Part shown: positions 8,293-60,190 of the stretch, piece by piece | Numbering within the stretch: the stretch's first letter is position 1 | How the letters are laid out: each line of letters starts with the position of its first letter | Origin: an uncultured virus (IMG/VR IMGVR_UViG_3300042879_005846) | Lineage: Duplodnaviria > Heunggongvirae > Uroviricota > Caudoviricetes | DNA length: 64,000 nt | Reading direction: 5' to 3' (one strand) | IMG/VR virus record: IMGVR_UViG_3300042879_005846 | Program-made: the position numbers and the translations under genes | The notes under the pieces: model-generated | Told to the model about the DNA's origin: nothing | Database searches by the model: none | The model's input: only the letters and a program-made list of their open reading frames with translations

Positions 8293-8357
8293 ATGAAATT
8301 GTATAAAAAAATCCAAATAAGTTTAATAGGAACATATGGGGCTTTTATATATAAATT

Positions 8358-12211: not shown

Positions 12212-12214
12212 ATG

Positions 12215-12297
12215 TACGAGGGGAGGGACTCGAACCCTCACGGGATTACTCCCAACGGATTTTAAGTCCGTCTTGGCTACCATTACAACACCCTCGC
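12215..12297 (-). tRNA. tRNA-Leu(UAA), CCA not fully encoded
   Basis: Acceptor GCGAGGG/CCCTCGT, anticodon arm ACGGA-CTTAAAA-TCCGT, long variable arm and GGTTCGAGTCC T-arm. Confidence 0.95.
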
Positions 12298-21400: not shown

Positions 21401-22796
21401 GACTGCTTTCTCAGCTACAACATCAACTGATGTTTACTTAAAGTCTAATGGTTATAATCTACCAGTTTGGGCAACTGTATCTGGTGGTGGAGGTGGAAGT
21501 GGTGATGTACAAACTGGTAATAGATGGTCTGTTCCAATTTATTCAACTGAAGGAACTGGTACCACACTTGATGATGTTGTTGGCGGTGTATCAATAACAA
21601 TTGCTTCTCAGAGTGGAGCAACATTTTTAATTCCTGATTTTGGTTTATCTAATTACACTGCTGACTTTGTCATGACAGTTGGTGCACAAACCATTAGTGG
21701 TACCAAGTCTTATAACAATCCTGGTATATTTAGATCTAATGGAGCTGATTTCCCACAGATTTCAATAACTGGTTCTAATCAGAGATGGGTTGATTTTGGA
21801 AACGTTGGATTTGGAACCCCAAGTCAAACTGGTGTAAGACCTCAAGGCACTAAATTAGTGTTGAAGGATGATAGTGAAGCAAGTGTCAGAATAGGTGTAA
21901 GAGATAAAACCACAGGAGCTACTAATTCCAGACTTTGGTTACAAACTGCAAGAGATGGTAGTGTAGATTTCTATGAAGACACATTCAGAATTGCAAGATT
22001 TGATGGAGATATTAGTGTATCAGGTGCTACTATGACATTTGGATCCCAAACATCTTCCAACATATTTGATGGATACTCAGTAAATTTAAGTATATCAAAA
22101 CAAACACCAGGAGCTACTGCAATTAAATCAAATACTACTCTAATGGTTCCAGTAGTAGGTGTTGATAACCAATTCTTAGTTGAATATTGGAATCCAGGTT
22201 TTACAAGTTCATTGGTTTCTTATTCCAACCTTGTTGTAGACTCATATGGAAGTATATCAAGAGGTGGTGAAATTGAATCTCTTGGATTATTCTCATTGGC
22301 AACAGCTTCAGTTCAACAAGTTTCTGGATTAACTGGATTGTCAAGATCGACTCTTGTCACTCCATCTGGTGGAAAAACCATACCAGCTTATTGGTGGTCC
22401 GTTGGTAAAGTTGTCACTGGTAAATATATTGGTACCTTACAGAAATCAACTGGAATCAATACTGTTAGTTTGAATTTAAGATTAGGTTCTACAAACTTAG
22501 TTAGTCTTTCACCTACTACAACTACGTTTAATGGTCCAAATACTTTTGAAATTGAATTTATGATTACATGTAGGTCTGTTGGGACTAATGGTAGCTTCCA
22601 TGGGTATCTAAAATATACGGAATTCCCTGTTATTAGTGCTGGTGATTTAATCTTATTCTCAATTAATCCATTCACAGGAACTGGTGTTGGCTTAATAAAT
22701 ACAACAGTAGATAATGATTTGGATATCTTTTTGAGTCAACAAAATGCGTACATCAAATTTACAATAGAACAAGCAATAGTAGAATATAAGAACTAA
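15429..22796 (+). CDS. Giant collagen-repeat tail fibre protein
   Basis: 2455 aa with long G-X-Y tracts and internally duplicated modules. Confidence 0.75.
15940..16300 (+). repeat. Collagen-coding tandem 18-bp repeats (GPQGFT); second tract at ~16690-16895
   Basis: ggtccacaaggatttact and variants in tandem. Confidence 0.9.
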
Positions 22797-22802
22797 TAAT
22801 AT

Positions 22803-28800: not shown

Positions 28801-31800
28801 ACTACTATAGAGCTTATTCCACTAATGCAGTTGGTACTGGATATGGTAGTGTAATATCATTTACAACTTTAAGAAGACCTACAATAAATAGTTCGACATC
28901 TATTACACAGCTTGCTGGACCAGTGACATTGACTTCAAATGTGAGTTCAGCTGTATTTGGTAATATTGATTTATATGGAGTAGCTTATGTAGCTGGATTC
29001 AAATACGGATTATCATCAGGTGGAACCTTAACTGAAGTCATAGCTGATTCATCTTACACAAGAGCAGAGTCATTGTTAGCTCCTCCATCGAACAACTTTA
29101 CTGCTAATGTTACATTGAACACAGTTGGTGGTTGGCTAATAAGAACTTTTGTAAGAACAAGTATACAAGAGTTTCAGAGCGACCTTACTATAACAATTCA
29201 ATCAGCACCTGTTGTGGAATTGTCATCCCTAGGTGGTGGCACTCCAACCTCAGTTGATGCATCAGGTAGATTAGTAACAACTGGTGGTTTCACAATTACA
29301 GAAAGGGGATTTGTCTATTCATTAACACCAACACCAACAGTTGCTAATTTTAAAAAGTCTGAAACATTTACTGGTTTTGTTCCTGGTAATTTTGGTGGAG
29401 GTTTGCTAAATATATCCCCATTAATCACTGGTAATGCTTATTACATAAGAGCTTTTGTTAAAACAAGTACTAATGTTAATTATTATAGTTCAGATGAACT
29501 AATTTATGAAACTGGTGGTGGTTTGAGATTACACTTTGATGCTGGTAATTTGTCTAGTTATAGTGGAAGTGGTACCACAGTAAATGATTTATCTGGACTA
29601 GGAAATCATGGAACTTTAACAACATTAGCTCCAACTTGGGAACCTTCAAACTTGGGTGTATTTAGATTTAATGGTGTTCTTAATAAACTAATAAACACCA
29701 CTTATAAAGGAGTTACTGGAAGTACACCAAGAACACTTTCCTTCTGGTTTAAGCCAAATACCACAGCAGATCAAGAAATAATGGGATGGGGCACTCCTGG
29801 TATTTCTGGTCAATTATGGGATGTATTACAAGTTAATGGACCAGGTATTCACATATGGTCAAGTTCCAACATATCCCGAGTCACTATACAAGCAAATGTT
29901 TGGCAAAATGTAATATTTACATATGATTCATTCAATATTAGATCATATTTAAATGGTTCAACTACACCATCAGCAACAACACTAACAGGACTCAATACTG
30001 GTAGTGCTACAAATTTCAAAATAGGAGATGGTAATTACGTTTATAATCCATTCAATGGAGATATTTCAGTTGTAAAGATTTGGGACAAAGTATTAACACC
30101 TCCTCAGATACAGAGTGAATACAATACTATTGTCAGTAGATATAATTTACCTGGTGTGTCAACTGGAGTAACTAGTTCAATTACAACAACGTCGATAAAT
30201 ATAATTAATAATGAGGTTTTCTATGGTGGAACTTCACCAGTGACAGCAAGAGGGGTTGCTTATGTAAAATCAGTCAATCCAACAAACCCAACAATAGCAA
30301 ATTCAACAGTACAAGTTGGTTCTGGGACAGGTTCATATAATGCATCATTGACTGGACTAGATGCTGGATCAACTTATCAAATCAGAGCTTATGCTACAAA
30401 TACATCAGGTACAACTTATGGAAAGAGAATCACAGTTGGTACAAGTCTTCCATTTAGTGTTTCAAATTATGTAATTACTAATTATTTTTTCACATCATCT
30501 GGTAGTGGAACTCTAACTGGTCAGATGAAATTGAGTTTTGTTGTGACTGGTGGTGTTGGATTGGTTGCTAGAACGAATTTTGGTGGTATAGAAAATGGTA
30601 CTTCAACAACTATCACAACAAGTCCACAAACAATAACTTCTCAAATTGGTATAGACTATGCTGATACACCAGGCACACCAGAGAATAGAAGATATGATGC
30701 TATTGTTGTTTGGAATTCAGTTCCATATGTGATGGATTCTCAAGTAATAGAATGTGAAAACTTCTATCTAAACACTGGTTCTTCATACAATTCATCAACT
30801 GATGCTTTTGTTGGTTCAATAGGTTTTGAAAATAGAAGTGGTAGAACAATTACTCAAATGGGAATAGCATGGAAAAACAAAACATTATCACCAACTGGTA
30901 ATGTTTTAGATAATCCTGAACAATACACAACAACTGTAGCAACATCAGCAACTAATTTCAGCAATGGTGGAAATTATAATTTTAGTATAAGTGCTAGTAG
31001 TTTTGCTAATACTCAACAAATTACCTTCAGACCTTATTTAATAGTTGATGGATATAAAATGTATGCATTCAATGGTGAAACTACACTAACAAAAACTGCT
31101 GCTGTTGTTGTACCAACAGTGACATACACTGCACCATCAACTTTGGCAGCTACTACTGCAAATCCTGGTGGTAATGTCACTGCAGATGGTGGAGCAACTG
31201 TTACTGAAAGAGGGATAGTTTGGTCATCAACTGTAAATCCACCTACAATTGAGAGTGGAACAAAAACACAAGTAGGTTCAGGTACAGGAGCTTTCACAAG
31301 TGCCTTGACCAATTTAACACCAAATACTACTTATTATGTAAGAGCTTATGCTATAAACTCAGCAGGACCTGCTTATCATTCTACTACAGCAACAACCTTT
31401 ATAACAGTAAATATACCAGTAGTTAATTCTGGTTCTATAATAAATCCATATTCTAATCAAGCTCAAGTAAGTAATGTTACAATCACATGGACTGGCACAC
31501 AACCAATAACACAAAGAGGTGTTGTTTGGTCAACCTCAACAAACCCAACAGTTGCTTTAACAACAAAAACAACTGATGGAACAGGTACAGGAACATTCAC
31601 TACTACAATTCAAACACTAAATCAAAATACGCTCTACTATATCAGAGCTTATGTTATAAATTCTGTTGGTACCTACTATGGAAATGAAATAACATTTACA
31701 ACACCAGCTCATCCAGTGGTAGCTGGTTTAAGCTTGAGTTCAGTAGACTATATTCTTGCTACTAATGGACAACTTCAATATTATAATTTTTCAGCTGGTC

Positions 31801-33794
31801 AACTAACACCATCAGAAACTTATGTAAATAGTTACCATGAGACTAGATTAAGAATAACTGGTTCAATGTCTAGTCTTTGGAAAGTTGGGTTTGTTTATTC
31901 ATCTTCAGTTAGTAATATTAATCAATTGGTTAAAGGTGCAGTAAACACTTCTTTTACAGAAATAACTGCATATAAATCACGTGAAATAACAGGGGCTAGA
32001 GAAATATTTGATGGACCATACCCAATTGATGCAAATCTTAGACCTTGGTATACAAGAGCTTATATAACTGATGGCACATCTATTACATATAGCACAATAA
32101 CAAGAGAAGTAAACATACCTAAACTTATACCAAATGCAATATACAATGGTGATGGAACTACTACTGCAACTATAACTGTTAAGAGTATGCAACCTGGAAC
32201 CACCCCATTACCAGTTATAAATGGTGGTGGTGTAGCTATACATGAATCCCTTCAAGGAGGTACCCCAACAACTGGAGCTGTTGTGACAGAGTACCCGTCC
32301 ACTCCATTTACATTGAATGCTAGTAATCAGTTTGTGTCAACTATAGATATCAAAACACTGATAAGTAACAATGGGTATTATAGAGTTTATGGGTACGTAA
32401 CATATCAATCAGTTGATGGTCCAATTAAGGTTTATAGTTTGGCTTACCCATTACAAAAAATTAATGGATTCGCAGTTGTTAATACAACCACAGCGGTTTC
32501 AGCAATAACATCAAATAGTGCATCTTCAGGTGGTTCTTGGACTTGGAATGGTGGAACTAATATAACTGCATATGGAGTTTGTTGGGCAACTACACAAAAC
32601 CCAACTATTGCTAATTCTAGAACAAATATTGGAACTAGTACTTTAACTTCTCTAACATTCACAAGTAACTTAACTGGTCTTGTTGGCGGCACCACATATT
32701 ATGTAAGAGCTTATGTAACTAATTCTTCTGGTACAAGTTATGGTCCACAAGTTAGCTTCACAACTACTTCAGGAACTACTGTTACATTGAGTACCTTAGC
32801 TACACTTGGTGTAAATATTGGAGGTTCTTACATTCTTGGGTTATACTGTACAATAACTGGTGGAACAGGTATTACATCCCAAGGTATTGTTTATTCACAA
32901 ACCAGTACAAATGGTGATCCATTAATAGGAGGTATTGGGGTCACTAGAATTAATTTCACTGGCGTACCTGGAACTACACCATTTACAGTGGATATTCCTT
33001 CTGGATTGATACATAGTACTAATTATACTATTAAAAGTTTTGTCATAATTGGTGGTAGTACAATATATAGTTCACCCCGTATACAACCAACGAATAGTAT
33101 ACAATTAAGGATAACGACTAATACAACTGAACTTGGTCCTGCTGGTCAACCTTTTTATGATTATTATTCAGTGAGTACTCTTGAAGGCATTCTTCGTGTA
33201 CCTTTTGATGCTAAGTTTTTTAATGCATCAATAGGCAATGCTGATTATGGTTATGTTGCATTGAAAGGGACTGGAACATTACCAAATCTATCCAATGCTA
33301 CCCATATACAAAGTAGTGTTGGAGATCTTGGTCCAGGTGATTTTGATTTTTCAGGATTTGTTATGCAGTTTAACGGAATATCACCACCAAGTTTAACTCA
33401 GGGCGTTTGGTCAGTGCGTTTGTTTTACAGATTTCCACAAACCACAGGAATTCCAATTTACTCATCCCTTGTTCAAATTTACGTACCATTTTTTACAATG
33501 ACTTATCAAGCCTTCACCCCAAATAGTCAATCATATACATTTAATATAACAACTAAAAACCCTACAACAGAAATTACAATAGTGCAAAGGGGATTTGCTT
33601 GGAGTATAACCAACCAACCAACTATAACGAGTAATGCCAATAGAACTATGGTACCATTGTCTGGCACAATAGACCTTGTTACATATGTATTCACTAATCC
33701 ACCTGGTACTTATTATGTTGGATTTTGGGTGTTATTGAGCAATGGTCAAAGATGGTGGTATTTCACTGACCTAGTGACTATCCAACTTGTCTAA
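22803..33794 (+). CDS. Giant LamG (concanavalin-like) and FN3-repeat adhesin / tail protein
   Basis: 3663 aa; about five LamG-like domains (L(H/Y)xDAG...W/V.DLS...FxGxI...RAL) and many RGvvWST...YYVRAYAxN..GT.YG FN3-like repeats. Confidence 0.8.
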   Translation: MPIIVNNSPLKASDPDLILWLDEGSGQSNIWVDKSQYKNSATITQAIFDGGLITDGTSNNNQSARKYALGTLSVVPTTGNINYTISVTFESFGTQPETPGGYLQWGKGQCVFSIPPTTLLGPGMQISYFPFDSTIGTKGSVSFAVNNTQYFYSPNNSIDYKQKVTATVTYNRATTSLRFYINGLEVPVTAVNGISQNLYTPPGAWPNQYILGGWNVSGYVRPLNGKIYNVSMFKRTLAPQEVYDFYVNKPLSISTKKASSDIILYLSDRGTSTGWGDNSIYSNGAIILGNATFSGGLVTPGLATLDGAEGRFTTLPGENFTVSALVCMYGLGSTGISTIIGTSPNSLGAGVTRGRGFIFALSSDRQLWFLSDNGGGPQSAANLFSFGETFLATVVVTNPNGTQSVSFYKNGEFVSNHLNSLFQPVTMTYNDPTYRVGTWGFPSFTNQLNGKVSNLIVYNRPLSDSEVKDLYLRMPSAYKSSISTLNQAPHGGKLLHIDAGNPKSYYLTGTTVNDLSVYGRNGTFSSFGSSGLPTFGTLNGGYFSFKDGSFIGFNPTGLPTAGESTIIVWARVTQLNGSWQTIFIYGGSDALQSRSIMIDPGGGIGVFLDKFRGVQTSNNFVQLNEWVQIVQVNKSTNVSNPTLILYLNGRLISSAQFSRLTVATKARLGRNDIWLTQDNVNTYEFPFYGDVGELVFYDRALDPQEIYQDYKVKRSRYELPEVVRLPGDVIPTIPTVQTLTVNGITTTTALSGVLVNNDGYSFIFDSGIIWSTSSASLQPGANPTNLSTKTTDGSGLMTNLSPNTTYYVVAYAQNSLGIGYGQILSFTTTSIVIPIVQNVRGTSLTSTQIRATASVVSLGNDANISQRGFAYHTASFSEATGGIYPRVSESGSFGLATYSLDITQLSGNTNYWIRAFATNTAGTDYSNDILQIITPQIPTVTILLGGISTTFDSFTIPIVTTGTSRIRQGIVYKLTQDQPNVGNDLDASQSITDNGGNINTSHSVGSLASAQTWYVWGFVETSDGVYYFTNTYVEVTTQGSLSPPVVTIDIDSFLENPENTANINGSVVLTNGTVTEHGFVFGSTQLFASGNNVTIETYSSILSLSTPIFDGEIFQGIQTLDTVTYYVRSYATNEIGTGYSAPITITILGLSGIVLPQIFTRPAVQISAGVFQLFGDIVSMGQLNQVYFGYGLKNINDSTFIEKAVDSTELDPTVGTIYTLPQEKIKYSTTNWQDPLSDGTYQVYAYASAVGKPAIRTQGNTVTFTVGAAFATVTIDYPKDLIVDTSPIFSLKTTLLSSPTDVLGNGFEWSTSEFFSTSEVTTTLTTNNNVEFSATIPGPGNSDLLSDTIYYVRAFVDNVAGRAYSNEIAIYTPKTFIVENPFVNLNVGDVQYNAQFDSNPVPTFITDKGHIWAPNSQITLFDLNNDIGFERYTVTGGGNLDGWSGNLFTTPQPGSTYFILPFVRLINEFGKMYVYGAQKSVTYEEIGLQLYLDAGLALSYPGSGTNWIDLAPYNRNGTIQSTSAVTYNSAGLASNLAFDGTVQSSSLVVTEGYTGVSGNTDRTVSIWIKPESVQSAEVLGWGVEANLQMFDILIFNGQIGIHLFGTNLISPVPVTVGQWQNFTFVYDGQERAVFTFKNGQFGTKQSIVSSAGIDTSNINTLRIGNGIYRSGLTTGYGSFQGLISIVRIWNQVLNDVQINEEYASFYTRYLTTTVVTGNAASVNNNSFIVQNSTVTSTSQILQRGIQYSLFAGMDPSSPEYDTPTTGTFNITLTDLQSGTNYFFRAFAQTSNGEFFYGVIKQQQTTSTATPPTVTLGTTPTIGGTNVSFANSNVTSSGSSTVTARGVVWSTSPNPTVALSTKTTNGMGTGTYNSDCTPLTKGVLYYFRAYATNSAGTGYSNEVSYTTLIEPTLTTNAFTFSNFGQITTTDGTNWRMTASASGLITSNGGSTITNYGIIYSQTNNPTLTTPGVITEPGVSPISVFPFSFLLIMTNLSENTLYYYRAYSTNAVGTGYGSVISFTTLRRPTINSSTSITQLAGPVTLTSNVSSAVFGNIDLYGVAYVAGFKYGLSSGGTLTEVIADSSYTRAESLLAPPSNNFTANVTLNTVGGWLIRTFVRTSIQEFQSDLTITIQSAPVVELSSLGGGTPTSVDASGRLVTTGGFTITERGFVYSLTPTPTVANFKKSETFTGFVPGNFGGGLLNISPLITGNAYYIRAFVKTSTNVNYYSSDELIYETGGGLRLHFDAGNLSSYSGSGTTVNDLSGLGNHGTLTTLAPTWEPSNLGVFRFNGVLNKLINTTYKGVTGSTPRTLSFWFKPNTTADQEIMGWGTPGISGQLWDVLQVNGPGIHIWSSSNISRVTIQANVWQNVIFTYDSFNIRSYLNGSTTPSATTLTGLNTGSATNFKIGDGNYVYNPFNGDISVVKIWDKVLTPPQIQSEYNTIVSRYNLPGVSTGVTSSITTTSINIINNEVFYGGTSPVTARGVAYVKSVNPTNPTIANSTVQVGSGTGSYNASLTGLDAGSTYQIRAYATNTSGTTYGKRITVGTSLPFSVSNYVITNYFFTSSGSGTLTGQMKLSFVVTGGVGLVARTNFGGIENGTSTTITTSPQTITSQIGIDYADTPGTPENRRYDAIVVWNSVPYVMDSQVIECENFYLNTGSSYNSSTDAFVGSIGFENRSGRTITQMGIAWKNKTLSPTGNVLDNPEQYTTTVATSATNFSNGGNYNFSISASSFANTQQITFRPYLIVDGYKMYAFNGETTLTKTAAVVVPTVTYTAPSTLAATTANPGGNVTADGGATVTERGIVWSSTVNPPTIESGTKTQVGSGTGAFTSALTNLTPNTTYYVRAYAINSAGPAYHSTTATTFITVNIPVVNSGSIINPYSNQAQVSNVTITWTGTQPITQRGVVWSTSTNPTVALTTKTTDGTGTGTFTTTIQTLNQNTLYYIRAYVINSVGTYYGNEITFTTPAHPVVAGLSLSSVDYILATNGQLQYYNFSAGQLTPSETYVNSYHETRLRITGSMSSLWKVGFVYSSSVSNINQLVKGAVNTSFTEITAYKSREITGAREIFDGPYPIDANLRPWYTRAYITDGTSITYSTITREVNIPKLIPNAIYNGDGTTTATITVKSMQPGTTPLPVINGGGVAIHESLQGGTPTTGAVVTEYPSTPFTLNASNQFVSTIDIKTLISNNGYYRVYGYVTYQSVDGPIKVYSLAYPLQKINGFAVVNTTTAVSAITSNSASSGGSWTWNGGTNITAYGVCWATTQNPTIANSRTNIGTSTLTSLTFTSNLTGLVGGTTYYVRAYVTNSSGTSYGPQVSFTTTSGTTVTLSTLATLGVNIGGSYILGLYCTITGGTGITSQGIVYSQTSTNGDPLIGGIGVTRINFTGVPGTTPFTVDIPSGLIHSTNYTIKSFVIIGGSTIYSSPRIQPTNSIQLRITTNTTELGPAGQPFYDYYSVSTLEGILRVPFDAKFFNASIGNADYGYVALKGTGTLPNLSNATHIQSSVGDLGPGDFDFSGFVMQFNGISPPSLTQGVWSVRLFYRFPQTTGIPIYSSLVQIYVPFFTMTYQAFTPNSQSYTFNITTKNPTTEITIVQRGFAWSITNQPTITSNANRTMVPLSGTIDLVTYVFTNPPGTYYVGFWVLLSNGQRWWYFTDLVTIQLV

Positions 33795-39767: not shown

Positions 39768-41498
<1,731 letters not shown>

Positions 41499-42041: not shown

Positions 42042-42572
42042 TTATTTAACCTTCTTCTGCCTAAGTGTCATTTGCCACTTATCACCATCATATTTCAATA
42101 GTTCCTCTTGTTGAGTTATATCAATTAAGATTTCACAGAACTTTTCCATAACTGCTCTACCTCTTTCAGGCATACTTTTTTGTCTACCTTTCAATCTACA
42201 AACACATCTTACTTTATCACCATCTTCAATAAACTCTTTAGCCTTTCTTGCCTTGGTTTGTAAGTCATTTATTGCAATATCACAACTTAATTGAATTTCT
42301 TTCAATTCAACTTTTTGTTGCAGTTTTTGTTTAGCTTTTTGTGATTTTTCCAAATCATAAATGAATTTGTTATAATCCTCAATTTTAACAATTGGTGGAT
42401 TTTGATTCTCATTTATAAGGATTAAATCTTTACCTTCTGCTTGAGCAAGTTTTGATGCTTCAAATGATGACATAACTTTTGGTTCTCCATCCCCAACAAG
42501 TCTTACTTGTGGAAAACGAACTTCACCATTAAGTTTATGTTTTCTTTCTTTTTGGAGTTTCCTATTTAACAT
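42042..42572 (-). CDS. infC: Translation initiation factor IF-3
   Basis: NGEVRFPQVRLV, A...GKDLI....PPIVKIEDYNKFIY, LKEIQLS..IAINDL.TK and GDKVR...LKGRQ. Confidence 0.92.
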   Translation of the reverse strand: MLNRKLQKERKHKLNGEVRFPQVRLVGDGEPKVMSSFEASKLAQAEGKDLILINENQNPPIVKIEDYNKFIYDLEKSQKAKQKLQQKVELKEIQLSCDIAINDLQTKARKAKEFIEDGDKVRCVCRLKGRQKSMPERGRAVMEKFCEILIDITQQEELLKYDGDKWQMTLRQKKVK

Positions 42573-45278: not shown

Positions 45279-45749
45279 TTACAAAATACCAAATAATTTT
45301 TTTAACCAACACCTCTTATATGGTTTATCTGATTGAAAACTAAAGTTGAAGTGTATTTTCCCATCAGCAAAAACCAAATCACTTGTAAGTGTTTGACTAA
45401 CATATGTTGTAGTCTCTATATTGTAACAAGACTTTTTGAATTTACTTCTGATTTTTTTAGGAATTTTATTGTAACCCTTTACCAAGTCATCAACAATTGT
45501 TTCAATCATTGAACTATCAACTACAGTATTATAGTGTGTATCAAAAACCTCATTCACTGAGTTATATGGCATCTCATAAGTATAGAAATCATATTCTAAA
45601 TTAAGTGCGCTATTCACTTTATCACAACAATCAAGTTTTTTAGAAGAATCAATTCTACTATAAAACTCATTTGCAATTTTGTCTTGCCAAGTTTGACCTA
45701 TTGAACTAAAGGATAGAATCAAGAATAGTACTGTTAGGATCTTTTTCAT
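45279..45749 (-). CDS. Secreted hypothetical protein
   Basis: Signal peptide MKKILTVLFLILSFSSIG-Q, with a Gln at +1 as is common in Bacteroidota. Confidence 0.7.
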   Translation of the reverse strand: MKKILTVLFLILSFSSIGQTWQDKIANEFYSRIDSSKKLDCCDKVNSALNLEYDFYTYEMPYNSVNEVFDTHYNTVVDSSMIETIVDDLVKGYNKIPKKIRSKFKKSCYNIETTTYVSQTLTSDLVFADGKIHFNFSFQSDKPYKRCWLKKLFGIL

Positions 45750-45787
45750 AATACAAATATAAGTTAAAGGTGGAAAAGTTCAAAATA

Positions 45788-51979: not shown

Positions 51980-54900
51980 TTATTTCACAACGATGTTTCT
52001 GATATATGTTGACTCAGGTGTTTTAACCTTTACAACATACTGACCAGATACAGTTGGCTTCTTAACCACAGTACCAATTGATTTGGAAACTACTCTTCCA
52101 AGTAAATCACAAACCATAACTTCCATATTATTAGTTGTTTCTTCAACACTTATTACAAATTCATCACCAATGACTGGATTTGGATAAACCACCATCTTTG
52201 AAGACTTAACTAAATCATTAGCATTACTTACTGAGTTAGTAAAGATAAGTTCAAATCTATCATTGAATGTGCCAGTAGATGTTGTGAAAGTATAAGTATT
52301 CGAACTATTAATTTCACTAATAGTATTTGAGTAATTATCCTTTAAATATACTTGACCAGTGAAGTTCAAGAAGTTAAGACCATCAAATTGGAATCCAAGT
52401 GTAGCTTCTTGGTTTGTTGAAAAACCAAGATTAACTACTACTTGGTCACCTTCAAATGGCATTCCATTGATTGCAAATTTCTCATCACTAACTACTGTAT
52501 AAACATTCAAATCAGGATTTGTGAGCTTGGTAGCATCTAGCTCAATTTCATAACCAACTTGAGAACCTTCAACAAATTGAAGTAGACAAGCATCCAACTT
52601 TGAATTTTCATTCTTAATTCTGATTTCTAGTGCATTTTGTCCTTCTGTTGAAGTCCTAAAGAATGTTCCACTTGTAGCAGCTTTAGCAGTTTGTGGAATA
52701 GTCAATGTAGAAGCTGAAGTACACTTTACAAAGAAAGCTTGACCAGAAGCGATTGGTGTAATCCCACTGTTCAATGTAACACCAGTTAAACTACCAAGAG
52801 TTCCAGAATACTGATATTGCGAAGTTACTGGGTTCCAAATAACAACAACTTGTTGTACACCAGCTCCCCAAGAGAAACCAGATGTATTTACAGCAGAAAG
52901 GTGTGGATTCATAACCAAGTTCCAACCTGGATAAAGTGCTGATGGGTTATAATCCAATGAGATAGCACTTGGATTCATTGTATAAACACCAGTGTTATCC
53001 AATGTTTTAGATGTTGGGACACTTACCCTATAACCCTTATATTGAGTGATATTTGAAGTTACAGGTACAATCCACCCTTTAGTAGTTCCACCAACATATG
53101 GAATAACATCATTGTTATTCTGGTCATATTCAAAAATTGTAGATGTATTATACCCACCATTGAATAATCTAACACCTGGCATTGGTCCTTGTGTCCAAAT
53201 ATCATCATTCCAATCTGCGATTGTTTGACTTGAAAACACAGTTCCAGTGAAGTGCCACCCAGTATTTGCAACATATCTCTCAGATGTAATCTGACCAGTG
53301 ATAGTCCCAGATGAATTAGCAATTCTAGCAGTTCCTGAAGCATTTGATTTAAGTGTAATAACACCATTTGAGTTCAAACTACCAGATGTTACAGTAAGTG
53401 CACCATATACATCAACTTTAGATGTAGAAGCAAATGTCATAGATGTTCCTTGACCAGCAGTAATATCAGTAAGTAAATTCCCTACTTGAATATTACCACT
53501 CACCCCAGTTGAAACACCACAAGAATAACCACCAGTTGTGTTATTATTTCTGGCAAATAAAGTTCCACCAAGAATTAGATTACCATTAACTGTTAGTGTA
53601 CCACCTCTCTGACCAGTAGCAGCTCCATCAAAACCATCAAGAGCAAAGTCAGTAGTTGCATCAGGCATACTGAGTGTTTTACCCTCCATTACAGTGGTAT
53701 TCAATACCGAATTATCTACGTTTGTATAGATACCAGCGCCCCCAGTAAACCTTACATTAACATTACTGTTAATAAATAGATTTGTTTGTTGGTTGATAAC
53801 ACTGTTTTTCCTCATACGACCAATATCTGTTACACCATTACCTTTGATGAAAATAGTATTTCCTTCAAGACCAAAACAGATTGGGTTGTAAGTAGCACCA
53901 GTTCCAATAACACCATTGTTACTGATGTCGCCATAGACATTTAGGAACTTATTATCAGCAGTTGTTGTACCAGTTGCAATCAAAGTACCACCTTGATTAA
54001 CAATAAGTTCTCTACAAACAACAGCCGCCCCACTTGAAGAAAGTTGTACCGTATCACCATCTTGAATAACAAGACCCCTTGATGTATTCATACCACCAAG
54101 TGAAGCTAGTGTAGATGGTGTTCCTGTTGGAGAGAGTGACCAAATAGCATCAGAGTGAGAAAGACCAGTGCCCCTTGAGTAAATGTTTACAAGAGTTGGA
54201 GTAGCAGTTACCTCAACACCAGGACTATATTGACTACCAAATTTTACAAAAATCTTGAAGTAATATAGTTGGTTGAGTGTAAGACCAGTAATAACTTGTG
54301 GTGAAGCAATACCAGTGTAAACCACACGACCACCACCAATGAAACCAGGAGCAGCTGCGTAGTTAGTATTACCAAAGTATGTACCACTTGGAGTACCTGT
54401 GATTGAAGATGTGTGTGCTACAATAACAATTTGAGATACACAAGCTGGATTTATCCAAGAAAGTTGAACAGTTGGTTGTCCACTAACAGCAGCTGGTGAG
54501 GAAACATTATCCAATGTACCAGCATCAGTAGTAACAGTAGTACCAGCACTTGGAGTTCCATTTTTTACTGAAGCAGGATTACTATAAGTAATGTTTGTAA
54601 GTGATGTAGAGGTAATATTGATTGTATTACCAACAGATGCACAACCACTAACAGAGGCAACTACAAAAAGATACCTAGTTCCAATAGGAATGTTCTGTCC
54701 AAGACCAGTGAAAGCCAAAGTTTGACCAGATCCAGTACTAGTTGAAATTGTAGAAAGAACTGGGTCTGTAACATCATAACTACCATCAGTTGAAAGTACC
54801 AATCTGAAACTTGTGAAGTCAGTAGATGCATAAGAACCAGCAGTTTGTACAGTTACACCAGTTAAAAGAGCATTACCATCAGTAACATCTAATTGAACCC

Positions 54901-56998
54901 TATAGATAGGTTGAGAAGTTCCTTGAGGAGCACTTGAAACAGGAGTTGTAAAAGTGTGAGCGATTGTAGGTGTTGGTACATTTACAGGAGCAAATGATAC
55001 ACCTTTGAAAAGAACCTGTGTTGAAGCAGGTGATGTAATGATTGGTAAACCACAAGCAGCTGCAATATCAGTTCCTGAACTTGTGATGTTAGCAGTTACT
55101 GCTGAATTATCAGTGAACTTATAGATTTCATTAGCAGGTGATGTAGATGTACCTAGACAGATATAGAGAACTCTATTTCCACCTACAACTTGAACACCAA
55201 TACCATGTACAGTTCTACCAGTTGGATTTGGAAGATTTCCTCTTTTTGTCCAAACACCACCAGTATTTGAAAACTTAACAAGACCTTGGGTTGCTGTTAC
55301 GTTAGCATCAGCTACATACATAACATCAGGTGTTCCATTATCATCAACATCAGCAAAAACAAAACCTCTTGGGTCAAGTAGTTCTGTATTTGATGTAGTA
55401 CCACTCAAGATTACATGGGTGTTTCCAGTAGTTGTTGGAAGTCCAGAACCAACTGTTGAAATACCAATATTACCAGATTGAGCACTTGAGTAAAGTTGTG
55501 AGTTATAGATTGCGGTACCTCTAGTATTTACAGTAGTTGTAGAAACTTGAGTAGAAGTAGAAGCACCAAGTGCTACATACCTTGTACCACCACCAGTTCC
55601 AGCACCACCTGTCCAAAATGCAGTACCATCAACAGTAGCAGCTGAACGAATGGAGTTACCATCGTAACCATCAGAAATCCTAGTTGATGTATTGATTGTG
55701 CCATTTTGTGTAACTCTAGCTACAATCCTATTGGTTGAGGTCGCTGTAGTTGAACTGATACCAGATAAACCTGGGATGTTATCATATCCACCAAATGTGA
55801 GATATTGACCATCTGGTGAAAGGTTAAGGAAACCTTCTGTTGTAGAAGTACCACTCATAGTGAATTTCCTATTTGAACCACTTGTTACAAATGGCATTGG
55901 TATACTTTGTACTAAAGTACCTGTGGTGGTGTATTCATCAATGAACACAGGTGCTGAGTTTGTTGATAAAGCTGTACCACCAACTTCACCAACACGAAGT
56001 GTTAGGATATTACCAGCAGTAAAAGCAGAACCACCAGAGTAAATCTGACCACTCACAGCTCTTGAAATGGTTGGCGCTGGAGAAGATACAAAATCAACGT
56101 TTCCAGTATATGTACCAACTGGTGAAGAAGTAGTAAGTTTAGCAAAAACTGTAGTTGATGCTACTGTACCACCAGATTGGTTAAGTGTCAAACTGGATGA
56201 AAAAGGACCAGTTGATGAAGTCGAAAATTCGTAACCAGAAAGTGGACCAACTGTGATGTTATTAGTTAGGTTATTTCCACTCACTGATACTGATTGTACT
56301 TCTGAACCAAGACCAACATTTCCATAAAACTTAGCGTAAGTTCCAGTAACATTAACAGTTGGAACTGGAAGAATACCTGTGAGTGTTATATCATCAATCC
56401 TAGTTGATGCTGTTCCAGATTTCAACCATCTAATTTTCAATCCATTAATCTGTCCAGCAGCTGGTATGGATATTGCTGGTGATTGATACCAGGCAATACT
56501 AGCACTCGCAGCTTGACTGAAGGTAAATGGGATATTCACCCAAGTAGTACCATTCCAATAATCAACAGCCAGTGTAGGTAGAACTGTGCCACTCTCTTTC
56601 CTATATCCAAATTGAAGAGATAAAGAGGTATAGGCAGAAGCATTAATGCCATCAATAGCGAATCCATATTGACCACTGGTTGAGGTAAAAAATACATTAG
56701 CACCACCAGATGCACCTGTGTAACCAGAGGAAACACTAGTTGCTCTTAGGTCAGCGGGATTTGTTGCCCCACCACTATTCATGAATAGAGCAGTATTGAC
56801 GAAACCGTTAGCTGTTTCATGAGCGGCAATAGTAGTTGTACCACCAACTGTACCCATGGTTTCTTGTGTAATAACAGGAGACTGCCCAAACACAGTATGG
56901 GCACAAAAAAGTCCTGAGATCAGGACAGCGCAGAAAAGGGACAATACGTTACTAAATCCTGTTCGGATATTAGTAAAAAGATTGTAAAGGTTTGACAT
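51980..56998 (-). CDS. Large secreted protein with T9SS type-A C-terminal sorting domain
   Basis: N-terminal signal peptide and Thr/Gly/Ser-rich beta domains; C-terminal VYPNPV...VCDLLGRVV...SGQYVVKV...RNIVVK. Confidence 0.85.
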   Translation of the reverse strand: MSNLYNLFTNIRTGFSNVLSLFCAVLISGLFCAHTVFGQSPVITQETMGTVGGTTTIAAHETANGFVNTALFMNSGGATNPADLRATSVSSGYTGASGGANVFFTSTSGQYGFAIDGINASAYTSLSLQFGYRKESGTVLPTLAVDYWNGTTWVNIPFTFSQAASASIAWYQSPAISIPAAGQINGLKIRWLKSGTASTRIDDITLTGILPVPTVNVTGTYAKFYGNVGLGSEVQSVSVSGNNLTNNITVGPLSGYEFSTSSTGPFSSSLTLNQSGGTVASTTVFAKLTTSSPVGTYTGNVDFVSSPAPTISRAVSGQIYSGGSAFTAGNILTLRVGEVGGTALSTNSAPVFIDEYTTTGTLVQSIPMPFVTSGSNRKFTMSGTSTTEGFLNLSPDGQYLTFGGYDNIPGLSGISSTTATSTNRIVARVTQNGTINTSTRISDGYDGNSIRSAATVDGTAFWTGGAGTGGGTRYVALGASTSTQVSTTTVNTRGTAIYNSQLYSSAQSGNIGISTVGSGLPTTTGNTHVILSGTTSNTELLDPRGFVFADVDDNGTPDVMYVADANVTATQGLVKFSNTGGVWTKRGNLPNPTGRTVHGIGVQVVGGNRVLYICLGTSTSPANEIYKFTDNSAVTANITSSGTDIAAACGLPIITSPASTQVLFKGVSFAPVNVPTPTIAHTFTTPVSSAPQGTSQPIYRVQLDVTDGNALLTGVTVQTAGSYASTDFTSFRLVLSTDGSYDVTDPVLSTISTSTGSGQTLAFTGLGQNIPIGTRYLFVVASVSGCASVGNTINITSTSLTNITYSNPASVKNGTPSAGTTVTTDAGTLDNVSSPAAVSGQPTVQLSWINPACVSQIVIVAHTSSITGTPSGTYFGNTNYAAAPGFIGGGRVVYTGIASPQVITGLTLNQLYYFKIFVKFGSQYSPGVEVTATPTLVNIYSRGTGLSHSDAIWSLSPTGTPSTLASLGGMNTSRGLVIQDGDTVQLSSSGAAVVCRELIVNQGGTLIATGTTTADNKFLNVYGDISNNGVIGTGATYNPICFGLEGNTIFIKGNGVTDIGRMRKNSVINQQTNLFINSNVNVRFTGGAGIYTNVDNSVLNTTVMEGKTLSMPDATTDFALDGFDGAATGQRGGTLTVNGNLILGGTLFARNNNTTGGYSCGVSTGVSGNIQVGNLLTDITAGQGTSMTFASTSKVDVYGALTVTSGSLNSNGVITLKSNASGTARIANSSGTITGQITSERYVANTGWHFTGTVFSSQTIADWNDDIWTQGPMPGVRLFNGGYNTSTIFEYDQNNNDVIPYVGGTTKGWIVPVTSNITQYKGYRVSVPTSKTLDNTGVYTMNPSAISLDYNPSALYPGWNLVMNPHLSAVNTSGFSWGAGVQQVVVIWNPVTSQYQYSGTLGSLTGVTLNSGITPIASGQAFFVKCTSASTLTIPQTAKAATSGTFFRTSTEGQNALEIRIKNENSKLDACLLQFVEGSQVGYEIELDATKLTNPDLNVYTVVSDEKFAINGMPFEGDQVVVNLGFSTNQEATLGFQFDGLNFLNFTGQVYLKDNYSNTISEINSSNTYTFTTSTGTFNDRFELIFTNSVSNANDLVKSSKMVVYPNPVIGDEFVISVEETTNNMEVMVCDLLGRVVSKSIGTVVKKPTVSGQYVVKVKTPESTYIRNIVVK

Positions 56999-57269
56999 AA
57001 AGTTTTCTTTTTTTTGTTTTACTAATTTTTTTGTGATGTTTTTTACTAATTCAACGATTTCAAACTCACTTAAACAATCATCAAATGATGAATTTATGTT
57101 AAATTTTCACACCACTAAAAATTTAACAAAGGCTTCAGTCAAGCCCACAATATATATCGGTCACCAAAAGTTTAGTTTAGCCAAAATTTATAAGAATTTA
57201 ACCATTTTTTTTCCTTGAAATCCTTGTGACTATTGGATTTGGTTGGATTGTAAAAATAAAAAAATAATT

Positions 57270-57533
57270 TTATAAATTTAATAGTTTAGTTTTCATTACT
57301 TCTTTGAAGACTCTTTCAAGTTTATAATTATCAACTGACTGGTCTCTGTACACACCATCTACACGGTTAAACACATCAAATTTACCAATATAAGCAACTT
57401 CTACATTGTGTAGAGTTTCACCAACTTGGTTGTGGTAAGTATTATGAGACTTCCAAGTTTTTATAGCCTCAACAGTATAACCTTCTTTTTTTAGAAAGTC
57501 AGACATCTCTTCTTTTGTAAAATAGAGCTCCAT
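57270..57533 (-). CDS. Hypothetical protein
   Basis: 87-aa ORF. Confidence 0.65.
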   Translation of the reverse strand: MELYFTKEEMSDFLKKEGYTVEAIKTWKSHNTYHNQVGETLHNVEVAYIGKFDVFNRVDGVYRDQSVDNYKLERVFKEVMKTKLLNL

Positions 57534-57545
57534 AGTATTATTTAT

Positions 57546-57683
57546 TTATTTAAAAATAGAAAGTGAAATTATAAAAAATATGCCAATAATAAATGATATA
57601 AATATTAACCCAAAAAAGACAGCACAACCCATAACAGAGGACATAATAAAATCACCTATTAAATTTCTTTTTTCTTCATTCAT
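57546..57683 (-). CDS. 45-aa membrane peptide (not in the ORF track)
   Basis: MNEEKRNLIGDFIMSSVMGCAVFFGLIFISFIIGIFFIISLSIFK; TATCTTTG-TATT-ATG upstream. Confidence 0.55.
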   Translation of the reverse strand: MNEEKRNLIGDFIMSSVMGCAVFFGLIFISFIIGIFFIISLSIFK

Positions 57684-57729
57684 AATACAAAGATATAGCA
57701 AAATTCTTTAAAGTTAAATTTTTTTTAAC

Positions 57730-57762
57730 AAAAAAAAACCCAACTGATCAAGTTGGGTTTTT
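57730..57762 (-). terminator. Intrinsic terminator ending the ncRNA candidate
   Basis: aaaaaaaaacccaact-gatca-agttgggttttt. Confidence 0.85.
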
Positions 57763-57794
57763 GGTTAATTAAAAGTTGAGATTGATTTAATCAA

Positions 57795-58077
57795 GATTGC
57801 GGCCTCAACACCACCAATCTCTAACTTCGACCATTCCAAATCCGCATATTTGGAAAAATCTACACCTTATTGTGTGTGTGATACCTCAGGTGTGGAAGGT
57901 ATCAGACCCTGCGGGTGACAGGTTTATTGACCCACAACATCTGCTAAATGTTGCTCCAAGTTTCATCCATAATAGCAGTTATGGACTTATCTGGACTCTT
58001 TGATTTATTCTTGGTTCCTAACATAAATCAAGTTAGATCCTTTCAGATAGTCGGCTCAAGGCAGCTCCTTTAGGACA
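57795..58077 (-). ncRNA. Candidate structured non-coding RNA (~280 nt), family unassigned
   Basis: GC-richer intergenic block with at least five hairpins and long-range closing stems. Flanked by a promoter (58081-58088) and a terminator. G-U pairs favour the minus strand. Confidence 0.7.
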
Positions 58078-58080
58078 ATA

Positions 58081-58088
58081 CAAAGGTA
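58081..58088 (-). promoter_or_regulatory. Bacteroidota-type -7 element for the ncRNA candidate
   Basis: TACCTTTG-TATTGTC, the same downstream context as the tRNA promoter. Confidence 0.7.
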
Positions 58089-58098
58089 AGGCGTTTTT

Positions 58099-58416
58099 TT
58101 AAGACTCCAAAATATTTTTCAATTTTTTTTCTCTTAAATAATGAATCATTCTTTCTTCAGCCCATAAGAATAACTTTAGTCTTGGAACTGAGTACTTTTC
58201 ACCCCATCTTGAATGGTTCATATAACCTTTTAACTCCTTGATAGTTGTTTGGACTGAATCTAAATCATGGAAAAAATTACCAGAAGAACCATAATACAAA
58301 AAAACTACCTTAGTATCATTTTCTAATATCTTGTGTCCATAAACCTCTGGATCATATTCATCTAATATGAAATAATCATTCTTAGAAAGGTCTGTGAATA
58401 TTTTGAGTTGAGACAT
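58099..58416 (-). CDS. Hypothetical protein
   Basis: 105-aa ORF; ends REKKLKNILES. Confidence 0.65.
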   Translation of the reverse strand: MSQLKIFTDLSKNDYFILDEYDPEVYGHKILENDTKVVFLYYGSSGNFFHDLDSVQTTIKELKGYMNHSRWGEKYSVPRLKLFLWAEERMIHYLREKKLKNILES

Positions 58417-58432
58417 AGTAATATATACTTAT

Positions 58433-58957
58433 ATGAAATTCATTAAAAGTTATAAAATTTTTGAATCGGATGCTACCTTTATGTATGACCCAAAATGGGA
58501 AGAGGTTTTACCAGTTTATATAAAAGTAATCAAAGGTGACCCTAAGCATCCACTCAGGTTAGTTTATAAAAAAGGGATTTCAAGACATTTAGGACCAGAA
58601 ATACAAATTCCATATGAAACTGTGGATAAAAGTGGTGGTAGGGAGAATCCCGATACACTTGAATTTGATATTTATTGGTCCTTTGATGATAATACAAAAA
58701 GTTTGGATATAAATGTAGAAGTAAATTATGGAGATTTAACAGCATGTCAGTTCTCCATAGAAACTCCAAATAAAGTGGATGTCATAGTATATACTTCATT
58801 ACACTCAAAAGATGATCCCTCAAACACAGTTTTTGCACTTGATGATGAAAGTTTGCAGTCTTTTTGTAATTACATCAATAGATGGGATCACGAATTTAAT
58901 CTAAACAGAGAAGATTTGAAATTTATGGATAAGTATGATAATTACTTACCCACTTGA
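58433..58957 (+). CDS. Hypothetical protein (MKFIKSYKIFES N-terminus)
   Basis: 174-aa ORF. Confidence 0.7.
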   Translation: MKFIKSYKIFESDATFMYDPKWEEVLPVYIKVIKGDPKHPLRLVYKKGISRHLGPEIQIPYETVDKSGGRENPDTLEFDIYWSFDDNTKSLDINVEVNYGDLTACQFSIETPNKVDVIVYTSLHSKDDPSNTVFALDDESLQSFCNYINRWDHEFNLNREDLKFMDKYDNYLPT

Positions 58958-60190
58958 TTTATCCCAAGTTTCAATTCCAAGAATGTGATAAACCTTATCT
59001 TTTACATCCTCTTGCACAACCCTCCTTATTGAAAGTTCCATGAGTAACAATTCCATTTCATCTTCTAAATTATGGTCTTTCAAGTCATAATTCTCCATAA
59101 TAGATATGGCAACAAAAGGATCTTTGGAAAATTTGCTAAGTATTGTCTCAAATGATTTTAGTTGATTTGAGAGACTAAGACCTTTAAGGTTTCTATTAGT
59201 GTTGGGAGCGTGTACTACTAGTCTATGAAGTTTATCTATAACTTCATCAGATGGTTCAATATCCAAATAATCTTTTAATGACATAGAAGAATCCATTATA
59301 GGATGTAACTTAAACCACAATTTTTCATTAGTTTCATTATTAAGGATGTTTCTAACATAAAAAAGGAAATCCTTTGATAAAAAAACACCAGTAATCTCTC
59401 CTTTTATGATATCAAGTTCAATGTTCTTGGGTTCTAATGTCCAAATTAAGTCATGTACCCCCAGATTATTCCTTAAATATTCCTCTATTTCTTCATCACG
59501 TACCAATTTGAAATACCTATTCAATTCAAACTCATACCTTTTGTACATATTAGCGTATCTTTCTTTGAATCTGAACTTTTGTGAGTCCATAAACTTGATG
59601 TTTTGCATTGCATAACAAATTATATCAAGTTCTATCTTTGGCAGAGTGGCTCCAAGATCATTTTTCTTTTTAACTAACCTCATGGCTGAGTGTGCTGGTG
59701 AAGTTAGATTTGTTAGTCTTAATTCTTCAGTTTCTAAAAACAGTTCAAAATCTTTAGACCAAATGAATTTATCATTTTTTATATCATAACCCAATTGACA
59801 ACAATTGATATCAAAAGATTCAAGTACAATACTTGGATCCTCAGTAGAAGACTTATATTCAATAATATTAAAAATACCATTTACTGAAACCTTTTCAATT
59901 GTATACCAACCCCTTTGCTGGTATCCAACATTTAATCCAGTATAATCTTCATAAACCCACTTCACATTTTTGGTAAAGTGTTGCTTTTCTTTCATTTCCC
60001 TTGTTGATATTGATTTTTTTACCTCTGATAAATGATAAATATCCAAATCATTTATTGGAGCTTCCTTACCTTTGAGTATATTCCAAGCCACATTTGCAAT
60101 AGACCCACCAGCTAGGAAACCAGTTGTTGGTAATTCCCATTTTGACTTTATTTGGTCAAGTGCTTGTCTAAAAATTTTATTGTATTCCAT
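58946..60190 (-). CDS. Nucleotidyltransferase-like protein (CCA-adding/poly(A) polymerase head-like)
   Basis: FLAGGSIAN...INDLDIY and ESFDINCCQLGYD. Confidence 0.65.
   Translation of the reverse strand: MEYNKIFRQALDQIKSKWELPTTGFLAGGSIANVAWNILKGKEAPINDLDIYHLSEVKKSISTREMKEKQHFTKNVKWVYEDYTGLNVGYQQRGWYTIEKVSVNGIFNIIEYKSSTEDPSIVLESFDINCCQLGYDIKNDKFIWSKDFELFLETEELRLTNLTSPAHSAMRLVKKKNDLGATLPKIELDIICYAMQNIKFMDSQKFRFKERYANMYKRYEFELNRYFKLVRDEEIEEYLRNNLGVHDLIWTLEPKNIELDIIKGEITGVFLSKDFLFYVRNILNNETNEKLWFKLHPIMDSSMSLKDYLDIEPSDEVIDKLHRLVVHAPNTNRNLKGLSLSNQLKSFETILSKFSKDPFVAISIMENYDLKDHNLEDEMELLLMELSIRRVVQEDVKDKVYHILGIETWDKSSG

Follow-up and report, generated by a model that had tools for sequence, protein, structure and literature searches.

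The 64,000-nucleotide (nt) stretch of DNA from an uncultured virus recorded as IMGVR_UViG_3300042879_005846, called the window below at its full length, very probably carries a real gene for a structured non-coding RNA that lies outside every Rfam family. The gene is found on the minus strand in a gap between two protein-coding genes, has a promoter box and an intrinsic terminator of its own, and is predicted to give a transcript of about 345 nt. Comparison of eleven distinct full-length sequences suggests that this RNA folds as a row of local helical domains, to which three H-type pseudoknots and two kissing contacts between loops are added. It is a candidate for a new, so far uncatalogued class of large structured RNAs. 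The broader reading, in which a discrete RNA gene of a huge phage yields a trans-acting molecule that works through its fold by the mechanism proposed below, is one that we hold with somewhat more belief than doubt.

Transcription unit

The features that delimit the gene are as follows; RNA position p corresponds to window coordinate 58077-p.

57730..58076, minus strand: RNA gene, about 345 nt long, with a predicted start at G58076 and its end in the U-run behind the terminator
58081..58111, minus strand: promoter, with a -33-like TTTG at 58111-58108, a 19-nt spacer and the -7 box TACCTTTG at 58088-58081
57727..57762, minus strand: intrinsic terminator, with a stem of 11-12 base pairs (bp), a loop of 5-9 nt and a U-run

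The RNA is contained in a 565-nt gap between minus-strand genes (57534-58098), within which the G+C content is 0.44 at 57800-57999 versus 0.24-0.33 in the flanks. A preliminary description of the region had pointed to a promoter context common to this RNA and to the tRNA-Leu gene of the window, and this proved correct: TACCTTTGTATTGTC (58088-58074, minus strand) stands before the RNA and TATATTTGTATTGTC (12315-12301, minus strand) before tRNA-Leu, and the extended box TANNTTTGTATTGTC has just these two matches in the window, where 0.01 would be expected by chance. Within the homologous sequences of alignment A4, TACCTTTGTATTGTCC is without variation (15 of 15). Promoters of Bacteroidota follow the consensus TTTG-N19-21-TAnnTTTG, i.e., the -33/-7 type, and the putative RNA promoter fits this type; its -33 element overlaps the final codons of the upstream gene for a protein of 105 amino acids (aa).

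The start of the RNA can be placed by analogy. The longer form TANNTTTGTATT occurs four times in the window versus 1.13 expected (3 of 100 shuffles reach four), and at two minus-strand sites, 45750-45761 and 57684-57695, the ATG of a gene comes immediately after TAnnTTTGTATT (an open reading frame (ORF) at 45279-45749 and a 45-aa ORF at 57546-57683, respectively). This arrangement at 45749 and 57683 suggests leaderless mRNAs with a fixed distance of 5 nt from box to start. If these two genes are indeed leaderless, they start 5 nt after TTTG, and the same distance would put the predicted start of the RNA at G58076. At the other end, the strong terminator that had been noted earlier was found again: its stem (57762-57734) has 12 pairs in the window and is followed by a T-run, standard pairs fill 97.5% of its cells in the eleven sequences, and two of its pairs change on both sides. 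Because the terminator ends the unit near 57730, the RNA would measure approximately 345 nt, longer than the 283 nt first assigned to it. The original span, 57795-58077, was thus too short, as the last hairpin extends to 57773 and the terminator to about 57730.

Secondary structure and covariation

That the RNA is highly structured, as first supposed, is borne out by its minimum free energy: the minus strand reaches -105 kcal/mol (z = -4.3; none of 100 shuffles folds as well), and the plus strand has z = -2.9. The fold model, built on the alignment of the eleven sequences to which the counts below refer, comprises 16 helices and 102 pairs, and its local helices are these:

58037..58076, minus strand: 5' irregular hairpin domain of P1 (GUCC/GGAU), P1b and P1c, RNA positions 1-40
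57955..57995, minus strand: P3 (UCCA/UGGA) around hairpin P3a (GUCCAUA/UAUGGAU), the latter at 57965-57986
57934..57954, minus strand: hairpin P4, with one covarying pair
within 57862..57904, minus strand: hairpin P6 at 57879-57904, RNA positions 173-179/192-198, with two covarying pairs
57834..57855, minus strand: hairpin P7, with five of eight stem pairs changing on both sides and the invariant loop UGCGG
57773..57827, minus strand: long 3' hairpin P8, in which 12 bp, interrupted by one bulged A, are separated by an internal loop from a further 7 bp, with the invariant loop CCGCA

Standard pairs fill 97.3% of 1115 cells, and 17 of the 102 pairs change on both sides. Homologues had been collected and tested for covariation, as the preliminary description advised, and the count exceeds both controls: shuffled alignments give 7.6±1.5 such pairs (none of 500 reaches 17), and sliding the partners by 1-3 columns gives 3-5. 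The changes are spread over P1b (2), stem 1 of pseudoknot A (1), P3a (2), P4 (1), the CCUG/CAGG helix of pseudoknot B (1), P6 (2), P7 (5), P8 (1) and the terminator (2). P1 and P1c show no variation, and P3a is paired in all sequences. In P1b, one pair is A-U in six sequences and G-C in five; a second is C-G in five and U-A in one, and is unpaired in the other five.

In one homologous locus, L206, P8 is divergent and was misaligned by MAFFT. The 3' domain (positions 171-310) was therefore additionally treated by a covariance model built from the ten other sequences, against which L206 scores 88.6 bits and the others 145-168 bits. In the model-fitted alignment, both-side changes are seen in 18 of 33 pairs of the domain, compared with 5.7±1.4 in shuffles and 1-7 in slid controls, and in L206 as many as 11 of the 12 outer P8 pairs are replaced while pairing is kept, although an alignment fitted in this way leans towards the structure of the model.

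All five hairpins of the preliminary description were recovered on the minus strand, 57834-57855 being P7, 57879-57904 P6, 57934-57954 P4, 57965-57986 P3a and 57998-58032 stem 2 of pseudoknot A. The first four covary (in five, two, one and two pairs, respectively), and the fifth shows one G-U wobble change only. The overall architecture had to be revised, however. The multibranch fold drawn earlier depended on two long-range closing helices, neither of which contains a pair that changes on both sides. In the GCCUUGA/UUGAGGC closure of the ends, two of seven positions are unpaired in 10 of 11 sequences, and in the UCUAACUU/AAGUUAGA helix a C-to-G change goes uncompensated in 5 of 11; that C/G instead covaries with a G/C located 18 nt downstream. 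Another long-range helix, CGAC/GUCG (positions 24-27 with 245-248), was also rejected, since a G-to-A change in five sequences is uncompensated.

Proposed pseudoknots and kissing contacts

Five proposed tertiary elements are placed on the row of local helices:

58001..58036, minus strand: pseudoknot A, stem 1 CUAAC/GUUAG at positions 41-45/55-59, stem 2 UGAUUUAU/AUAAAUCA at 47-54/69-76
57908..57933, minus strand: pseudoknot B, GGGU/ACCC at 144-147/161-164 interleaved with CCUG/CAGG at 155-158/166-169
57867-57862, minus strand: AGGUGU (210-215), which can pair with the P6 loop ACACCU (184-189), 20 nt upstream of it, as pseudoknot C, with an 11-nt CA-rich third loop
57978-57973 with 57946-57941, minus strand: kissing contact 1, P3a loop CUGCUA with P4 loop UAGCAG, 6 bp
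57846-57842 with 57802-57798, minus strand: kissing contact 2, P7 loop UGCGG with P8 loop CCGCA, 5 bp

Pseudoknot A follows from the covariation of positions 41 and 59, which are C/G and G/C, respectively, in a 6/5 split of the eleven sequences and in a 7/7 split with zero exceptions among the 14 sequences of alignment A4 that cover the pair. The stem thus defined has 5 bp, and its loop consists of the 5' strand of the 57998-58032 hairpin, which makes the element a classical H-type pseudoknot. Its stem 2 is paired throughout, with one U-A/U-G pair, and its third loop is 9 nt long and A/C-rich. In pseudoknot B, one CCUG/CAGG pair is G-C in five sequences and A-U in six, and GGGU/ACCC is invariant; with an unusual loop geometry (third loop of 1 nt) and a covarying pair whose split is also seen at position 190, this is the least certain element of the model. 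The stem of pseudoknot C is 98.5% paired and does not vary save for one unpaired cell.

In kissing contact 1, the central pair is G-C in three sequences and A-U in eight, with zero exceptions, and the other five pairs are invariant. The metatranscriptome contigs described below agree with this contact at 57976/57943: contigs X3 and X8 have both changes, and X4 has neither. Kissing contact 2 is paired in all eleven sequences and invariant. Taken together, the 29 proposed tertiary pairs are 99.7% paired versus 29-43% when slid; the tertiary helices other than kissing contact 1 are to be regarded as proposals from sequence comparison.

Two side observations concern the middle of the molecule. Positions 158, 166 and 190 (57919, 57911 and 57887) change together in a 5/6 split, being G, C and G or A, U and A, and CAGG can pair with either of two copies of CCUG. 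The joint changes could indicate alternative conformations or just shared ancestry.

Homologues and conservation

The homologues were reached through the protein encoded upstream: the 105-aa sequence led to 44 related clusters (63-91% identity), and a metagenome scan with their alignment led to 19 loci. Four of these stop within the 105-aa gene; in all of the remaining 15, the RNA lies directly after the gene. Ten RNA homologues are full-length (82-92% identity in BLAST), and five are cut by a contig end. One of the ten comes from a viral contig of 464,605 bp (estimated to be 98% complete), which is the closest public relative of the window and carries no second copy of the RNA. All homologues come from relatives of one clade of huge phages, with one copy per genome. 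The neighbourhood is syntenic throughout (414-aa, 174-aa and 105-aa genes, the RNA, a small ORF and an 87-aa gene), so that the linkage of the RNA with the 105-aa gene is no independent sign of a partnership.

Searches beyond this clade gave little. Among GenBank phages (INPHARED), blastn in a distant mode gave a single match, 36 nt long, to the part of the query that holds the terminator. In IMG/VR, scans with DNA patterns and proteins yielded the 464,605-bp contig alone, other matches being due to chance, and a scan with the 414-aa neighbour gave no match. A further IMG/VR scan returned 38 loci of a conserved phage protein; in 14 of these records, which were examined for the RNA, neither BLAST (four matches of 16-23 nt, E 0.006-0.08) nor the covariance model (best E 0.098) found it, nor was the 105-aa gene present, and because these records are 3-75% complete, the absence there means little. 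In GTDB, where each prokaryote species was represented by a single genome, neither of two degenerate 24-nt patterns, searched exactly and thus able to detect close copies only, had a match.

No reading frame is conserved among the eleven sequences: the longest open stretches have 41-97 codons and vary in frame, strand and length, and the sole minus-strand AUG frame (26 codons) is shortened to 12 codons in a homologue by a 1-nt insertion (judged by eye). A small peptide or protein-coding small gene is thus ruled out. It might also be thought that the region is a functionless, GC-rich intergenic remnant that happens to fold well, and the conservation of so narrow a family of close members may partly reflect a short divergence time. 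However, the body of the RNA is 84-94% identical to the window in local alignments, compared with 73-92% for the 105-aa gene, 73-84% for the 174-aa gene and 69-78% for the 87-aa gene. In 8 of 10 loci its identity exceeds that of the 105-aa gene (not so in L191 and the partial L206), and it is usually the best-preserved part of this neighbourhood. Moreover, compensatory changes lie far above both controls, the promoter and terminator are conserved and the RNA is present in RNA libraries, which together leave a functionless remnant barely credible.

Presence in RNA libraries

Part of the stretch was found in 20 sequencing runs, 19 of which are metatranscriptomes of fresh water, lake or river (18 studies); half or more of the sampled words were present in one run only. 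In line with the expectation that the RNA is transcribed, contigs from four runs of four studies lie on it, covering 57802-58002 (100% identity), 57769-58185 (X3), 57854-57996 and 57878-58108 (X8). In the same four runs, the flanking genes are represented only by low-identity pieces of 31-39 nt, and the uncovered parts of 56900-59100 are no evidence of silence. No splice or cleavage joints are listed among these contigs.

Against this background, a cis-acting role can be considered, in which the structure either ends the 105-aa mRNA as its 3' untranslated region or regulates the downstream genes as a leader or attenuator. There is no terminator between the 105-aa gene and the RNA, contigs X3 and X8 cross the boundary between them, and the RNA follows this gene in 15 of 15 loci; in addition, AAGUUAGAG can pair either with the 3' strand of P8 or with UCUAACUU near the 5' end, a possible switch. 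However, the RNA has its own invariant promoter box, common with a tRNA, and the downstream ORF has its own box directly before its ATG. The alternative pairing does not covary, and 5 of 11 sequences disrupt it; the body matches no riboswitch, T-box or leader family, and a pseudoknotted structure of approximately 310 nt far exceeds the needs of known attenuators. A cis-acting element therefore appears rather unlikely. As for the promoter claimed in the preliminary description, its conserved box stands, but it may not be the only one used, since two of the four contigs extend upstream of the predicted start. The stability proposed there is likewise presumed, as the four runs supply assembled contigs and not raw reads.

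Comparison with known RNA families

With gathering thresholds, Rfam 15 finds the tRNA alone in the whole window. In E-value mode (E up to 10), 25 weak matches arise in 57500-58300, none reaching its cut-off (the best has 30.5 bits versus 55). None of them extends 5' of 57861, which indicates that they reflect the terminator; those to leader families (rnk, Phe, rimP), each falling far short of its cut-off, lie over the terminator hairpin, with the rnk match extending as far as 57822. On nine homologous loci (E up to 1), the only matches are two weak ones at or close to the terminator. The suggestion of a possibly new class of phage RNA is upheld in that Rfam 15 has no match on the RNA body in the window or in these nine loci. 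A full-text literature search returned no description of the RNA, and passages of PMC12619734, which deals with large aquatic Bacteroidota phages, make no mention of non-coding RNA.

A number of candidates were rejected one by one. RNase P RNA, signal recognition particle (SRP) RNA and 6S RNA are absent from the weak Rfam matches in the window region and the nine loci. GOLLD, ROOL, OLE, raiA and other large orphan RNAs have no match through their Rfam covariance models. For a riboswitch, T-box or leader attenuator, no aptamer model matches, and the one candidate alternative pairing is without covariation. A type III antitoxin RNA (ToxI-like) was dismissed because Tandem Repeats Finder reports in 57500-58300 only a TTAT run, which lies outside the RNA. 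A group I intron does not agree with a location between complete genes, a promoter and terminator of its own and the lack of an Rfam match.

The most obvious comparison is with transfer-messenger RNA (tmRNA), which is of similar length, also contains a row of H-type pseudoknots and is encoded by huge phages. It might thus be asked whether the RNA is a strongly diverged housekeeping RNA, i.e., tmRNA, RNase P RNA, SRP RNA or 6S RNA, particularly because its approximately 345 nt and string of pseudoknots recall tmRNA and because huge phages carry translation genes, such as the initiation-factor-like gene at 42042-42572. However, the RNA has neither a tRNA-like domain nor a tag frame, nor a match by ARAGORN or Rfam: ARAGORN reports only tRNA-Leu in the window, and the tmRNA clan (RF00023 and permuted forms) gives no match in 57500-58300 at E up to 10. 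Its ends fold as local covarying hairpins, with no acceptor stem or tRNA-like domain formed from paired ends, and no tag frame is conserved; tmRNA was rejected on these grounds. Finally, a true tmRNA (58 bits versus a cut-off of 47) is encoded elsewhere in the 464,605-bp relative (239084-239437; locus L210 of G001). A diverged housekeeping RNA is therefore very improbable and largely refuted, and the early remark that the hallmarks of tmRNA, RNase P, SRP and 6S RNAs are missing holds, with no Rfam match to them at E up to 10 and no tmRNA from ARAGORN.

Other phage RNAs offer looser parallels. Prohead RNA (pRNA) of phi29 is a stable phage RNA with its own promoter that assembles through intermolecular loop-loop contacts. 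The window RNA is likewise a phage RNA with its own promoter and has two mutually complementary pairs of hairpin loops, but it is approximately twice as large and does not match the Rfam model of pRNA, and its phage shows T4-like large-phage features and not phi29-like ones. The stable RNAs of T4, "species 1 and 2", are approximately 120-140 nt long and lie within a tRNA cluster. They resemble the window RNA, which is presumably stable as well, in being phage RNAs with unassigned function and tRNA-like expression (here, a box common with tRNA-Leu), whereas the window RNA, at approximately 345 nt, is separated from the tRNA by 45 kb. GOLLD and ROOL measure roughly 580-800 nt. They, too, are large orphan RNAs, often found in phages and prophages, with many helices, pseudoknots and conserved complementary loops through which RNA-RNA contacts may form; in contrast, the RNA described here is smaller (approximately 345 nt), is without an Rfam match and is confined to one clade of freshwater huge phages.

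Possible mode of action

Under the favoured reading, the RNA would be transcribed from a Bacteroidota-type -33/-7 promoter common with tRNA-Leu, from G58076 to the terminator near 57730. The pseudoknots and kissing contacts would pack its helices into a compact body, and the RNA would act in trans via its three-dimensional shape, which is our best guess for the mechanism. It may serve as a protein-binding scaffold or decoy, made alongside the other stable RNAs of the phage, and would be neither an antisense regulator nor a cis leader. A tRNA-like extended promoter, a terminator, shape-preserving evolution and invariant stretches of helix would all fit a stable trans-acting RNA.

Several points weigh against this reading. 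The family is narrow: the homologues are close (82-94% identity) and come from a single syntenic phage clade, and this confinement is the chief limitation. Some covarying columns (positions 158, 166 and 190) split the sequences alike and may therefore reflect few events, and four of the five tertiary helices, being without both-side changes, rest on complementarity. The TAnnTTTG box by itself is not enriched in the window (112 found versus 109.5 expected). The four runs provide assembled contigs that were chosen for carrying the RNA, from which ends, strand and abundance cannot be read; DNA carry-over is a possible source of these contigs, and because X3 (to 58185) and X8 (to 58108) pass the predicted start, read-through from the 105-aa gene is possible. 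The 105-aa protein, with a net charge near -1 (counted by hand) and no informative fold match, gives no lead to a partner protein.

The complementary loops also allow a different view, in which the RNA is a self-assembling architectural molecule whose loops pair between molecules to give dimers, rings or cages. Complementarity within the loop pairs CUGCUA/UAGCAG and UGCGG/CCGCA is complete in all 11 sequences, and one of the two loop pairs covaries. As read from the fold model, the partner hairpins differ in height above the junction that they share (P4 has about 7 bp versus about 13 layers for P3 plus P3a; P7 has 8 bp versus about 21 layers for P8), so that contacts within one molecule would require sharp bends. 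Furthermore, GOLLD and ROOL are likewise phage-associated orphan RNAs, and PMC12286853 describes them as multimeric assemblies (dimers, rings or cages) seen by cryo-electron microscopy (cryo-EM). However, sequence comparison does not distinguish pairing between molecules from pairing within one, conserved asymmetric internal loops beside both contacts could supply the bends, and no similarity to the Rfam models of ROOL, GOLLD or prohead RNA was found. Self-assembly thus seems unlikely.

A compact catalytic RNA, for example for RNA processing, has also been considered. In its size, its multiple pseudoknots and the long invariant stretches within helices (P4, pseudoknot B and stem 2 of pseudoknot A), the RNA is closer to large catalytic RNAs than to small regulatory ones. 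However, no Rfam ribozyme family matches in the window or the nine loci, no cleavage or splice junction is seen and the RNA does not lie within a gene, which makes a ribozyme quite improbable. A more general proposal can be entertained tentatively, with distinctly more doubt than belief: the RNA may represent a new class of large RNAs with tertiary structure, specific to huge Bacteroidota phages, whose shape lets them act as catalysts or as particles that assemble themselves via the two loop-loop contacts.

Neighbouring genes, phage and host

Two small genes flank the RNA:

58099..58416, minus strand: 105-aa gene, upstream of the RNA in 15 of 15 loci, with no terminator between
57546..57683, minus strand: 45-aa hydrophobic ORF, downstream of the RNA, with its own TATCTTTGTATT box directly before the ATG

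The 105-aa protein has no significant match in Pfam or PHROGs. Its AlphaFold model has a predicted local distance difference test (pLDDT) score of 84, the best Foldseek match in the PDB has an E-value of 0.17, and a wide search with VIA-align gives a best Z of 5.8 to helical-hairpin chains, which is uninformative. Two of the 44 clusters are labelled "RNase H-related nuclease YkuK" by their source, a label that could not be supported. The 105-aa gene (minus strand) and the 174-aa gene (plus strand) are divergent, with start codons 16 nt apart (58416-58433), which leaves hardly any space for two conventional promoters. Its box makes the 45-aa ORF a separate and probably leaderless unit; the same arrangement of box plus ATG is seen in loci L203, L194 and L191.

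Elsewhere in the window, there are genes for an endolysin, a primase and pieces of DNA polymerase with homing endonucleases, and the sole tRNA is tRNA-Leu(UAA) at 12214-12297. Next to a DNA polymerase fragment (7062-8099, minus strand) come a G+C-rich gap of 171 nt (8100-8270, G+C up to 0.51) and then a homing-endonuclease-like ORF (8358-9212, plus strand), and the polymerase gene at 7062-9212 looks like one split by an intron or intein, although Rfam has no group I intron match there. Two adjacent giant ORFs (2455 and 3663 aa) occupy 15429-33794 on the plus strand, the first having collagen repeats and matches to tail-fibre families. A PurZ-like adenylosuccinate-synthetase homologue (39779-41038, minus strand; phrog_1211, E 1e-113) hints that adenine in the phage DNA may be replaced by 2-aminoadenine. 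The translation-initiation-factor-like gene mentioned above (42042-42572, minus strand; phrog_9787, E 5e-41), together with the tRNA and the tmRNA of the relative, suggests that the phage may intervene in host translation. A 1672-aa protein (51980-56998, minus strand) ends in a weak match to the C-terminal Por_Secre_tail, a type-IX secretion sorting domain (21.9 bits, below the Pfam cut-off of 27); such an end is unusual among phage proteins and hints at a host among the Bacteroidota.

Since the closest relative is the 464,605-bp contig, the window comes from a huge phage. The promoter type and the weak match to a sorting domain indicate a Bacteroidota host, which would probably be a freshwater member of this group.

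Significance

Few phage or bacterial RNAs above 300 nt combine several pseudoknots with long-range contacts, and the examples that are understood are, to our knowledge, ribozymes, guide RNAs or the cores of ribonucleoproteins. The RNA described here is unusually complex for its size. Should it belong to a catalytic or self-assembling class, that class would join a very small group of complex-folded RNAs above 300 nt. Since it has a promoter and a terminator, is supported by covariation and is present in RNA libraries, the RNA is ready for synthesis, chemical probing and cryo-EM. More generally, the finding points to unexplored RNA biology in the huge phages of lake Bacteroidota, which already carry genes for tRNA, tmRNA and translation factors.

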